DNA from: Nitrospiraceae bacterium
GTDB taxonomy: Bacteria; Nitrospirota; Nitrospiria; Nitrospirales; Nitrospiraceae
NCBI GenBank assembly: GCA_037442105.1
Contig: JBBIQV010000012.1
Coordinates: 50,067 to 70,066 of the forward strand
Length of the DNA stretch: 20,000 nt
Direction: 5' to 3'
Part shown: positions 14,385-20,000 of the stretch, in pieces
How the letters are laid out: each line of letters begins with the position of its first letter
Position numbering within the stretch: the first letter of the stretch is position 1
Translations under genes and position numbers: made by a program
The notes under the pieces: generated by a model
Told to the model about the DNA's origin: nothing
Seen by the model: the letters and a program-made list of their open reading frames with translations, nothing else
Databases searched by the model: none

Positions 14385-14450
14385 GCCCATCGCAAAGCTA
14401 ACCGGCGCGCGCCAATTTGGCGCGCGTCCGAGTTGAGCGTGTAGTTAGAG
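14385..14450 (-). repeat. attC site 2 (core GTT>GAT)
   Basis: Minus strand CTCTAAC-TACACGCTCAACTCGGACGCGCGCCAAATTGGCGCGCGCCGGTTAGCTTTGC-GATGGGC. Confidence 0.8.
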
Positions 14451-15015: not shown

Positions 15016-15073
15016 CGCCAACGACGAAGCTCAGCCGGCGCTGCAGGCGATCCGCTGAAGCTCTGAGTTAGCC
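15016..15073 (-). repeat. attC site 3
   Basis: Minus strand GGCTAAC-TCAGAGCTTCAGCGGATCGCCTGCAGCGCCGGCTGAGCTTCGTC-GTTGGCG. The TAA is the stop of the upstream toxin. Confidence 0.85.
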
Positions 15074-16976: not shown

Positions 16977-17036
16977 ATCTCACGCGAAAGCTCAGCCGTC
17001 GCTGTCAGGCGATCGGTCTGAAGCGCCAAGTTAGGC
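16977..17036 (-). repeat. attC site 5 (core GTT>GTG)
   Basis: Minus strand GCCTAAC-TTGGCGCTTCAGACCGATCGCCTGACAGCGACGGCTGAGCTTTCGC-GTGAGAT. Similar to attC3. The TAA is the DUF2283 stop. Confidence 0.82.
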
Positions 17037-17249
17037 GGAAATGGTCTGTACCATCAGCGGCAGCTTGTTGAGTGTGAGCTGTTTCAGCTCAACCTTTTGG
17101 CTGGCATTGTCGATGTCGATCCCCACAAGATGGCCTTTGGCATCGTAATCAAGAACGATGCCTTCAGCGATCTCTCGACTTTCGACGCTCGGCCGTTCGG
17201 AAAGATCGATATACAGCGAATCGGTATCAGGATAATAATTGAGCTTCAT
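17031..17249 (-). CDS. DUF2283-family protein (putative antitoxin)
   Basis: YYPDTDSLYIDL and IVLDYDAKGHLVGIDI. Confidence 0.85.
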   Translation of the reverse strand: MKLNYYPDTDSLYIDLSERPSVESREIAEGIVLDYDAKGHLVGIDIDNASQKVELKQLTLNKLPLMVQTISA

Positions 17250-17531: not shown

Positions 17532-17565
17532 GCCTAACGAATGAAGGTGGGGGGCGCGATTAGAC
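17532..17565 (-). repeat. Internally deleted attC site 6 (34 bp)
   Basis: Minus strand GTCTAAT (contains the stop of the upstream gene), N20, GTTAGGC. L boxes are missing. Confidence 0.55.
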
Positions 17566-17985
17566 AAGGCGCTTGCCTTTCCGATAATGCGCGGGCGAAA
17601 GCCGTTTGATGGAATCAAACGCGGATTTGTAGGCGGCCGCTTCCCAAAGCCACGCCTCTTGAACTTCGTACTGCGGGTTATAGAGAAGCCATACCAGAAA
17701 ATCCCAATTGTAATTCTTCGCCTTCGGCACTAGCGTAACAACGCTACCAGGTTTGCCGCTGGGACGATTTGCTTTGACTTGATACCGCCAGTTGTTGAAC
17801 GTGAAGTCGTAGCCCTTCTGAACTGCTGTTGCTCCACACATGGACGCGGAATAGTGCTCCGCTGAGCAACCGACCAGCATGGTGGCATCAAATTCTGAAA
17901 GCGCTGACGTAATGGAAGGCGCAATACCGAAAGTGCGTTCCCATGCGAGAGCCGCTTCCACGAGTTTTTGGCGGAGATCGTTCAT
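17560..17985 (-). CDS. Hypothetical protein, possible PD-(D/E)XK-type nuclease
   Basis: SE..KGYDF..RYQVKA motif. ATG lies 4 nt after the GTTAGGC core, as in a promoterless cassette. Confidence 0.6.
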   Translation of the reverse strand: MNDLRQKLVEAALAWERTFGIAPSITSALSEFDATMLVGCSAEHYSASMCGATAVQKGYDFTFNNWRYQVKANRPSGKPGSVVTLVPKAKNYNWDFLVWLLYNPQYEVQEAWLWEAAAYKSAFDSIKRLSPAHYRKGKRLV

Positions 17986-17996
17986 AAGCGCCTAAC

Positions 17997-19758
17997 GAGC
18001 CTGTAGAAAAACCACTTTCGAAACGCTAGCAAATGCACGCCCAGCGCGCAAACGATCGCGGGGCTGGGTTGTCGTGGAGAACGAGTGGCGTTTAGGCATA
18101 GTGGCTCCGGGTTCCCCGCATTAACTCGTCCCACAGTGGGCGATTTTCTCGATATTGTGGACCAGGGTGAACAGCTTCCATTGGGCACCCACCTTTCGTG
18201 TGCCTCGCAGCGTGAAGCGCCGCAACCCCTTGTTCTGGAGGTTCGCGAACACCGGCTCGACGATGGCAATGCGCTGGTTGTAGACGAAGCGCCCCAGGAG
18301 GGTGTCGAACTTGCGCTTCATCTTCTCGAGGGGCTTCTCCTTGCGTGATTCGGCTGCGCCGATGAAGATCGTGACCTGCTTGGTTGCTGTCTTCTGCGGC
18401 GTGGTGAGGCAGCGATGGCGTACGAGGCACGGGCCGCAGACGGATTTGGCGCCCCGGAACTTCACGCCGAGATAACCGTGGACGTCAATATTGTTGCCGT
18501 TGCGGTACAGGGGGTGACCGGCCGGACACCGGCAGGTTCGGTTCTTTTCGTCGTCGTCGAAGTCTTTGGCCGTGTAGCGGTCGCCGTTTCGACCGGCGCG
18601 TCGGCGTTTCTCTTCGCGGGAGCGCTCTTTGTAGCGATCCGCCTCGGCAAACGCGGGATCACGTTGGCGATGTTGGCGGTCGGCGATGTAGGCGTCGATG
18701 TGATGGTCTTGCGTGTACTGAACACTCGCCTGGCTGGAATAGCCGGCATCGGCGGTGAGTTTGGTTTTCCCGAAGATATCGTCGTCGATACCGGCGGATT
18801 GGCATTGCTCCCGCGTGCTTTCGATCATCGGTGCCAAGAGGTGAGCCTCCTGGCCCTCGCCGTGGGCCTGCGCATTCACCACGATTTGGTGTGTGGCATC
18901 GACCACCGCAATGCCGTTGTAGCCCTGAATCACACCGTGATGGGTCGACATCTTGGCACTGTCCGGGTCGGTGATGTTGCTCTTTCTCTCGTTGCCGCTG
19001 GGGCCCACATTCTTCTTGGCGCTTCTCAGAAAGCTCTTGATCTTGTCGATCTTGCGCTCGTAGGTGGCGCGTTTCTTCTCCTCCTGGGCAAGGATGGGGG
19101 AGAGCTTCTCCTGGGCATCTTGTGCCTGGTGCCGGGCGACGATCTTCTTGGCCGCCGCTTCGAGCTTCTTCTGCTTGCGGCGCAGATCCTGGTGCGTGCC
19201 GCTCCATTGCTTGGAGGCGTTGCCCGGCAGCTTGCAGCCGTCGATGGCCAATGTATCGCGGCCGATCAGATTGAGCTCACTGGCGTACATCAACACATCC
19301 GTGAAGACGCTCGCCACTTCCCGGGGCATCTGCGCGACAAAGTCCGCGATCGTCGTGCAGTGCGGACGGGCGTCGGCGGAAAGCGCCATACACTGCACGT
19401 GGCGCTCGCAGGCTTCGGCGAGCCGGCGACTCGACACGATGCCCTTGTCGTAGCCGTACACCACGACCTTCAGCAGCACCGCGGGATCGTAGGCCAACCG
19501 CCCGGTGTCGTCGTTCGTGTAGCGAGCTTCAAAGGGCGTCAGATCGATGTGCTGCTCGACGATCTCATCTAAGGCGTATTCGAAGGAACCCGGCAGGATC
19601 TGGTCGCGGAAGGAGAGGGGGATGAACTTGCCCTGGTCGACGTCGTAGGGCTGTAGCGGGCCATCGACACCTCCTGTCCTGAGCTGAGCGGTGCGGGATC
19701 ACCAACCAACCGACGATGGCCGGATTTTACATGAGAAGAGTAGTTTTTCTACAGGCTC
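17997..19758 (-). mobile_element. IS1182-family insertion sequence
   Basis: 20-bp terminal IRs with 19/20 match (GAGCCTGTAGAAAAACCACT at 17997-18016, AGTAGTTTTTCTACAGGCTC at 19739-19758). Flanked by an AAC duplication. Confidence 0.9.
18121..19664 (-). pseudogene. IS1182-family DDE transposase, frameshifted at codon 5
   Basis: GGAGG, then ATG GCC CGC TAC AG CCC TAC GAC (1 nt missing). Motifs AYDPAVLLK, IDGCKL, TDPDS, QGYN, ADAGY, VEPVFA, HNIEK. Confidence 0.8.
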
Positions 19759-19815
19759 AACGTTGGCGATGAGCTGCGCCGTCTTCTGGCGTCGGTCTCC
19801 ATCGCCTTGTTAGGC
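19759..19815 (-). repeat. attC site 7, split by the IS (rest of core at 17990-17996)
   Basis: Reconstructed minus strand GCCTAAC-AAGGCGATGGAGACCGACGCCAGAAGACGGCGCAGCTCATCGCCAAC-GTTAGGC, a canonical attC. Confidence 0.88.
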
Positions 19816-19843: not shown

Positions 19844-19999
19844 TTACGAACTGCCAGTGCGGAGGAGTTCCACCACAGCATCGACGACCTGCTTCAACGA
19901 TTGCGGCTTGAGTGTGGCAACCTCCGAGACAATGAGATCCAGATTGGCGGTGAAGAGTTTGCCTGAGCGAGCGTAACTCAGGACTCGTAGCGACCCAGT
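19844..19999 (-). CDS. PemK/MazF-family toxin, C-terminal part
   Basis: Manual translation TGSLRVLSYARSGKLFTANLDLIVSEVATLKPQSLKQVVDAVVELLRTGSS*. Confidence 0.7.
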   Translation of the reverse strand, partial: TGSLRVLSYARSGKLFTANLDLIVSEVATLKPQSLKQVVDAVVELLRTGSS

Positions 20000-20000
20000 G

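Follow-up and report, generated by a model that had tools for sequence, protein, structure and literature searches.

An IS1182-family insertion sequence and its relatives at the crossover triplet of integron attC sites

An attC site split by an insertion sequence

The window, that is, the whole 20,000-nucleotide stretch of DNA analysed here, is the final 20 kb of contig C12 in a 2.8-Mb assembly (62 contigs) of a Nitrospiraceae bacterium. Below 13.7 kb the genes are ordinary chromosomal ones. Between 14 and 20 kb the DNA resembles the distal end of a cassette array in decay, with small open reading frames (ORFs) of no assigned family sharing the minus strand around an attC site that is split by an insertion sequence (IS). 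The features are as follows:

14389-14450, minus strand, weaker attC-model match (E 1e-4)
15020-15073, minus strand, weaker attC-model match (E 2e-3)
16982-17036, minus strand, weaker attC-model match (E 5e-4)
17560-17985, minus strand, ORF of the next cassette (141 aa, without a Pfam family), its ATG 12 nt past the IS
17990-17996, minus strand, R' core site GTTAGGC, whose GTT (17996-17994) is the second copy of the triplet
17997-18016, minus strand, inverted repeat IRR, downstream of the transposase gene
17997-19758, minus strand, IS1182-family insertion sequence, 1762 bp, assigned by its inverted repeats and transposase families
18121-19664, minus strand, transposase gene with a 1-nt frameshift near 19651
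19739-19758, minus strand, inverted repeat IRL, upstream of the transposase gene, beginning GAGCCTGTAG (minus strand)
19759-19815, minus strand, 5' part of the split attC: R'' GCCTAAC (19815-19809), L'', loop, L' and the first GTT (19761-19759)
19844-20000, minus strand, 3' end of the ORF of the preceding cassette, which runs off the contig end

The plus strand thus reads GCCTAAC (17990-17996), the IS (17997-19758), AAC (19759-19761), GTTGGCG and so on to GTTAGGC (19809-19815). In the direction of the minus strand the order is the end of the preceding ORF, with its stop at 19846-19844 (28 nt ahead of R''), then R'' GCCTAAC, the hairpin, GTT, the IS, GTTAGGC and, after 12 nt, the 141-aa ORF. 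A truncated R''/R' pair is seen directly behind this ORF, at about 17539-17562. Further along, a DUF2283 gene (17031-17249, minus strand, E 8.6e-20) has its stop codon within an attC-like R'' motif. Integron integrase genes are present in the assembly on contigs C39 (470.7 bits) and C1 (296.2 bits), in each case at a contig end and not on C12.

The initial annotation placed the IS exactly at the GTT crossover triplet of an attC, and the window sequence confirms both the position and its coordinates. It had also proposed that removal of the IS and one AAC restores a canonical attC, which proved correct: excision by script left a 61-nt site whose ends, GCCTAAC and GTTAGGC, pair at 7/7 positions, so that R'' (RYYYAAC) and R' (GTTRRRY) are mutually complementary, as the definition of an attC demands. 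The restored site has a predicted DNA fold of -16.1 kcal/mol (z -4.5); among 500 dinucleotide shuffles, which average -7.68 +/- 1.88, none (0/500) was equally low. The split site scored 69.6 bits with the first covariance model described below (R1), of which it was itself a seed, and 55.4 bits with the second (R2). Extrahelical bases on one arm of an attC mark its polarity, and integrases cross over in R', between G and TT. The restored site has two single-base bulges in its 5' arm and none in its 3' arm, hence the cassette strand is the minus strand of the window, with the IS at the R' end.

Contigs of other sequencing runs bear on the duplication of the triplet. In run X1 the depth over the attC part (19759-19815) is 84, compared with 10.9 for the neighbouring DNA, which indicates that this part belongs to a repeated attC family, and several contigs of the run hold paralogous intact sites. 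In one such intact paralogue RYYYAAC occurs only once ahead of GTTGGCG; AAC/GTT is thus truly duplicated in the window and, with GTT on both sides of the IS, the duplicated target is the core triplet itself, as first annotated. Contigs of the runs contained neither an empty copy of this exact attC nor a circle junction, as none joins across the IS, and BLAST within the assembly found no paralogues of the three attCs.

IS1182-family elements have terminal inverted repeats and are about 1.3-2 kb long. The length of the window IS and its 20-nt terminal repeats (19/20 matching, 95% complementary) fit this family, as do relatives of 1734-1890 bp. The single long minus-strand frame inside the IS encodes a protein with the Pfam domains DDE_Tnp_1_6 (C-terminal, E 2.3e-16) and DUF772 (N-terminal, E 1.4e-09); NCBIfam NF033551 (IS1182) matches it with 258.8 bits over positions 2-487/488, just below the cut-off of 270, and the runner-up family, IS5, reaches 21.9 bits. 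The Pfam domains bear out the earlier assignment to the IS1182 family with a DDE transposase. Membership of the IS1111-attC group was considered and rejected, the transposase being of the DDE IS1182 type and the repeats terminal rather than subterminal.

The main transposase frame, in which the first possible start is a TTG at 19497, does not include the ATG at 19664-19662, which lies in another frame. An additional T follows 19651 in contigs of runs X2, X3 and X4 and brings the ATG into frame (MARYKPYDVDQ...), and contigs of run X1 carry the version of the window at this position, codon 5 of the transposase; runs X2 and X3 gave identical figures and were counted as one data set. The missing base may mean that the copy is dead or that the assembly is wrong at this point, where the depth is 11. 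IRL, the upstream repeat, holds a promoter-like site (9/12 matches; 19751-19724, minus strand); a search of the other end of the window IS for an outward-facing promoter-like site found none.

Further copies and MITEs in the same genome

A second IS, on contig C28, shares 64% nucleotide and 49% amino acid identity with the window IS and has an intact transposase gene (516 aa). It interrupts a different attC (...CGTT / IS / GTTAGGC), one cassette past an intact 105-nt attC, and its transposase gene reads in the direction of the cassettes. The array on C28 consists of the 105-nt attC, a 425-aa ORF and the attC that holds the second IS, and ends beside an ORF on the opposite strand; integrase fragments with a stop (C28:23977-24817; L002 1-4520) are found upstream of these two cassettes.

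Two miniature elements (MITEs) show the same flanks. One, of 98 bp (C10:75319-75416, ccgtt / MITE / gttagcc), has the same ends as the IS and the same position in an attC, and the other, of 220 bp (C60:55-274, ggtt / MITE / gttaggc), has GTT on both sides. Both MITEs lack genes, share the IS end sequence and lie near contig ends. In the whole assembly the second covariance model (R2, E <= 0.1) scores 6 sites as attCs, and 3 of the 6 end exactly at one of these elements. Near-identical copies of the window IS in runs X2 and X4 lie in different contexts, again between AACG and CCTAAC, which points to recent mobility.

Relatives in other genomes and metagenomes

A protein-based scan, limited to one genome per species, identified 43 loci with transposases of 35-69% amino acid identity. 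By record title the hosts are Gammaproteobacteria, Rhodocyclaceae, Nitrospirota, Verrucomicrobiota, Lentisphaerota, Gemmatimonadota, Actinomycetota and Myxococcota, thus at least seven phyla. A left end could be placed in 31 loci, the remaining 12 of the 43 being contig ends, truncated copies or copies with unrecognised repeats. The triplets flanking the element were:

Left ends (n = 31): GTT 27, AAC 3, AAT 1
Right ends (n = 25): GTT 23, AAC 1, AAT 1

When locus L017, whose genome is flagged as unpublished, is left out, the counts for GTT become 26/30 left and 22/24 right ends, those for attC-model matches at the junction 16/24, and those for genomes with an integrase 25/37. With L017 included, an integron integrase above the curated cut-off was found in 26 of 38 host genomes, compared with none of 14 control genomes; the distance between integrase and IS is about 4 kb in L006 and about 7 kb in L015. 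Most of the contexts are contigs of metagenome-assembled genomes (MAGs) or metagenomes. A complete isolate genome with the element is that of Pseudoalteromonas piscicida 2515, where it lies within an array as cgtt / IS / gttatat. The best matches in plasmid records, of 38-40% identity, come from Pseudoalteromonas and Catenovulum.

The few ends without GTT follow a pattern. Locus L020 has AAT on both sides instead of GTT, and in L015 the attC is on the opposite strand and adjoins the other end of the IS, so that the target is the same and the element inverted. The AAC- or AAT-flanked loci L015, L020, L037 and L038 belong to an Alteromonadales-type subclade inserted the other way round. In a quick tree the AAC/AAT rows form a nested clade (L015 plus L020, support 100). 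Insertion orientation thus tracks lineage, which argues for mechanism rather than chance.

Metagenomes were scanned with the exact 15 bases of the IS end, giving at least 125 stretches, of which 80 loci were examined. Among the 84 matches listed, 51 adjoin AAC or GTT, where about 3% would be expected by chance; the preceding triplet is AAC in 34, GTT in 17 and scattered in 33, the last group apparently being chance hits, given the great size of the collection. Eight of the metagenome loci listed hold MITEs of about 100-220 bp. With at least 3470 protein clusters at E <= 1e-30 among 8000 candidates scored, the lineage is abundant. That the habit of inserting at attCs is a property of this lineage, as the first reading of the window had supposed, is borne out by the second IS, the MITEs and the GTT triplets of 27/31 left and 23/25 right ends elsewhere.

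The 27 transposases of the ingroup form one clade with a support of 100 (quick tree), on a long branch away from ISPmo1, ISPpu20 and ISMno38, with which they share 25-29% amino acid identity. The protein sources name them simply 'IS1182 family transposase'. The window transposase is 90% identical to that of the IS in L012 (a Rhodocyclaceae MAG) and close to a copy in a Nitrospira MAG. Near-identical transposases are also seen across phyla, in the MAGs of L018/L019 and L021/L024 (branch lengths 0.07-0.18), which suggests horizontal spread, or else mis-binning of the MAGs. The three outgroup elements, known from plasmid records, have their Pfam and NCBIfam families in common with the present clade, and the end motif of ISPpu20 (GGCTGTG..AAAA) resembles the ends of the present element. 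The flanks of two of them, each taken from one copy, are unlike those described here: those of ISPmo1 differ from GTT, and ISPpu20 (L053, on pWW53) is placed centrally in a palindrome that resembles a terminator, flanked by TTAAT on each side.

Covariance models of the targets

Simple tests for attC sites failed, and covariance models were therefore built. Strict scans for RYYYAAC...GTTRRRY were too strict: they turned up nothing further in the window, a single clear attC in the assembly and a doubtful site among the loci. A test based on minimum free energy did not discriminate, since it passed 4/19 junctions and also 96/1500 random CGTTR sites, and an anchored-stem score gave p < 0.05 in 11/25 junctions, yet missed clear attCs. 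The motif YAAC[AC]A occurred in 14/22 junctions of the genome set, compared with 5.5% of sites in the element's own genome and, within the loci, 14% of CGTTR sites, but failed in the AT-rich metagenome flanks (5/14 junctions vs 10/33 chance matches, among the matches listed). MAFFT aligned 13 sites of differing length without a consistent structure, and a search of Rfam returned nothing relevant. Model R1 was accordingly made from seven short sites, aligned with MAFFT and with the structure written by hand, and R2 from 35 matches to R1 (E <= 0.01); both models trace to seeds adjoining the IS.

Scoring the flanks of copies and homologues with attC models is a check of the kind that the initial annotation had proposed, and its outcome agrees with the proposal. 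With R2, an attC ends exactly at the left junction of the IS in 17/25 loci of the genome set (E <= 0.012, flank >= 100 nt) and exactly at the junction in 10/14 of the metagenome matches listed (flank >= 150 nt). The 17 matches of the genome set comprise 2 seeds of R1, 10 non-seeds found by R1 (E <= 0.01) and 5 sites on which neither model was trained (L017, L024, L027, L030, L031); for the 10 listed metagenome matches the corresponding counts are 3, 6 and 2, the last being L107 and L117. Four further MITEs among the metagenome loci listed have an attC match on their far side. In the genome set 45/48 of the R2 matches are on the strand of the transposase gene, the exceptions being two in L015 and one weak palindromic echo, and 22 matches are intact attCs elsewhere in the flanks, which identifies these loci as cassette arrays. 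The 35 aligned sites are 91.6% paired, compared with 29-41% in slid controls, in an alignment that was fitted to the model and so favours structure; compensatory (two-sided) changes occur at 13/16 pairs.

R2 found no match at the junction in L009, L012, L013, L016, L018, L029 and L032 of the genome set, with L028 at E 0.36, nor in L097, L099, L110 and L134 among the listed metagenome junctions. In L012, L013 and L016 other attCs lie nearby on the same strand. The target in L018 is within a 191-aa open frame, and this looks like a real insertion outside an attC. The initial annotation had named insertion of other copies at random or non-attC sites as evidence against its reading; an attC is scored at 17 of 25 junctions, and L018 appears to be a non-attC insertion of this kind.

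These data make it very probable that the DDE transposase of a deep IS1182 clade inserts the IS, together with the MITEs derived from it, at the R' GTT, the 3' foot of attC hairpins.

Fate of the occupied attC

Insertion replaces the outer letters of the R' box by the end of the IS. On the minus strand of the window the upstream junction reads GTTGAGC, which fits GTTRRRY, and the same is seen in L002; in these two copies the hybrid match pointed out in the initial annotation is real. From it that annotation had gone on to propose that the site stays usable and that the IS rides along with the next cassette. The alternative is that insertion puts the attC out of action, so that its part of the array becomes frozen, and that the IS end fits GTTRRRY by coincidence; we give this about an even chance. 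In its favour, the IS ends of relatives are GAGG, GAGA or CAGG, which puts most hybrid sites outside the GTTRRRY consensus. Across 16 junctions the mean outer R-box pairing falls from 2.6/4 in the intact site to 1.8/4 in the hybrid, the predicted lowest-energy fold of the hybrid differs from the attC fold (such DNA predictions being crude, which weakens the point), and the sites that follow downstream in the window are either weak or in decay. Against inactivation stand the AAC/GTT pairs and the L box, which insertion leaves untouched, and the tolerance of integrases for changed outer R-box letters of attC. Complementarity of the outer R box across the IS was tried as a further measure and set aside, as it was barely higher than in a mismatched-locus control (2.56 vs 2.24 of 4).

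Near-identical IS copies in other runs have different downstream flanks, which gives no sign of joint movement of the IS and the next cassette. A usable hybrid site, with the IS carried along by the next cassette, is at most weakly favoured and on balance rather unlikely. A fuller version, in which the transposase would read the folded attC hairpin, the hybrid would recombine, and the integrase would carry the IS and the MITEs with the next cassette, even across phyla, appears unlikely. If the hairpin were indeed read in this way, that would explain both the restriction of insertions to R' and their fixed orientation, and if spread were cassette-borne, the transposase gene would be read from the integron's own promoter.

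Choice of target

The position of the insertions, the duplication, the orientation and the recurrence across genomes are matters of direct observation. Transposition itself is presumed from natural insertions as they stand in the sequence. In the mechanism that we propose, a DDE transposase would insert the IS and its derived MITEs at the GTT of the R' core site, probably after cleavage with a 3-bp stagger, so that the 3-bp GTT becomes duplicated. Insertion would take place in one orientation, with the transposase gene co-directional with the cassettes in most of the clade, and the choice of target would depend both on the L'-R' sequence at the spot (RRC-GTT-R) and on the hairpin next to it, in keeping with the known taste of the IS1182 family for palindromes. 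Occupied and unoccupied attCs have the same 3' end, RRC-GTT-R, with C before GTT in 18/19 occupied and 19/22 unoccupied sites; thus no sequence preference beyond the attC consensus is seen. Recognition through 10-15 bp of sequence alone is possible.

How far the hairpin matters may be judged against an account in which the transposase reads only a short sequence, about CGTTR, and attCs are in excess because insertions in them do no harm and survive. The C before GTT in 18 of those 19 occupied targets agrees with this, as do CGTT before 14/17 GTT-type metagenome ends (among the matches listed), the 12/39 junctions that score no attC and the insertion of L018 in an open frame. It must be set against the numbers in the Nitrospiraceae assembly itself, where 8883 CGTTR sites are available in 2.8 Mb and 3 of the only 6 attC-scoring sites are occupied. 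The R'' end, which reads TGTT on the other strand, has 0 insertions among the junctions with a model match, although TGTT is tolerated at four R'-type junctions, and the non-scoring loci L012, L013 and L016 still lie in attC arrays of the same strand. A transposase guided by so short a sequence alone is therefore quite unlikely.

Very improbable is insertion of the IS by the integron integrase in the manner of a cassette, a circle recombining at G/TT and leaving GTT on both sides: the flanking triplet is indeed the crossover triplet, the orientation is fixed and integrases co-occur with the IS, but at no locus does a model match end at the right end of the IS, which thus lacks the site that a cassette needs at its 3' end, and the inverted repeats are of the terminal, DDE type, MITEs exist, one clade is inverted, L020 has AAT on both sides, and some insertions lie outside scored attCs. 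Insertion by the DDE transposase at the foot of the attC hairpin remains the preferred reading.

Relation to known attC-homing elements

Integrons rank among the main means by which bacteria gather and rearrange genes, and to our knowledge two kinds of element that home to their attC sites have been known so far, the IS1111-attC elements and the group IIC-attC introns. The former (ISPa21, ISPst6 and ISKpn4, of the IS110/IS1111 families) are described as monophyletic and as having a fixed place and orientation in attC (PMC3001079; PMC11187229), and as using a DEDD transposase guided by a seekRNA (PMC11187229). The latter are retroelements that insert in the bottom strand, against cassette transcription, and both kinds are reported to enter attC close to its 5' end and in antisense to the cassettes (PMC3001079). 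The present clade resembles the IS1111-attC elements in being an IS lineage at one position of attC and in one orientation, and differs from them in its DDE transposase, its terminal repeats, the 3-bp GTT duplication, the location at the 3' (R') end and the mostly co-directional transposase gene. The group IIC-attC introns are likewise an attC-specialised lineage with a fixed orientation.

Within the IS1182 family, IS1272/TnSha1 of staphylococci has hairpin targets; two reports give it no primary-sequence specificity and no target duplication, with part of the stem deleted and insertion in both orientations (PMC4923244; PMC5678879). Compared with IS1272/TnSha1 as portrayed there, the present clade is precise, keeps its target intact, duplicates GTT and uses one orientation per clade. 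The taste for hairpins or palindromes is one that it shares with those IS1182 members, as the attCs at its junctions attest (PMC4923244). A survey of plant microbiomes reports, with no claim of targeting, that IS5-family members make up 49% of cassette-associated transposases (PMC11089894). A search of the literature found no paper on IS1182 elements that target attC. It is well supported that the present clade joins the family's taste for hairpins with a precise, oriented and duplication-forming insertion at the crossover triplet.

If this holds, an ordinary DDE insertion sequence with MITE offspring, placed on the crossover triplet itself, would be a third kind of attC-homing element. Its existence would alter the reading and annotation of cassette arrays, and could help to account for the breaks in arrays that are met in assemblies. 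The clade would also offer a tractable system for the study of how DDE transposases recognise structured sites.
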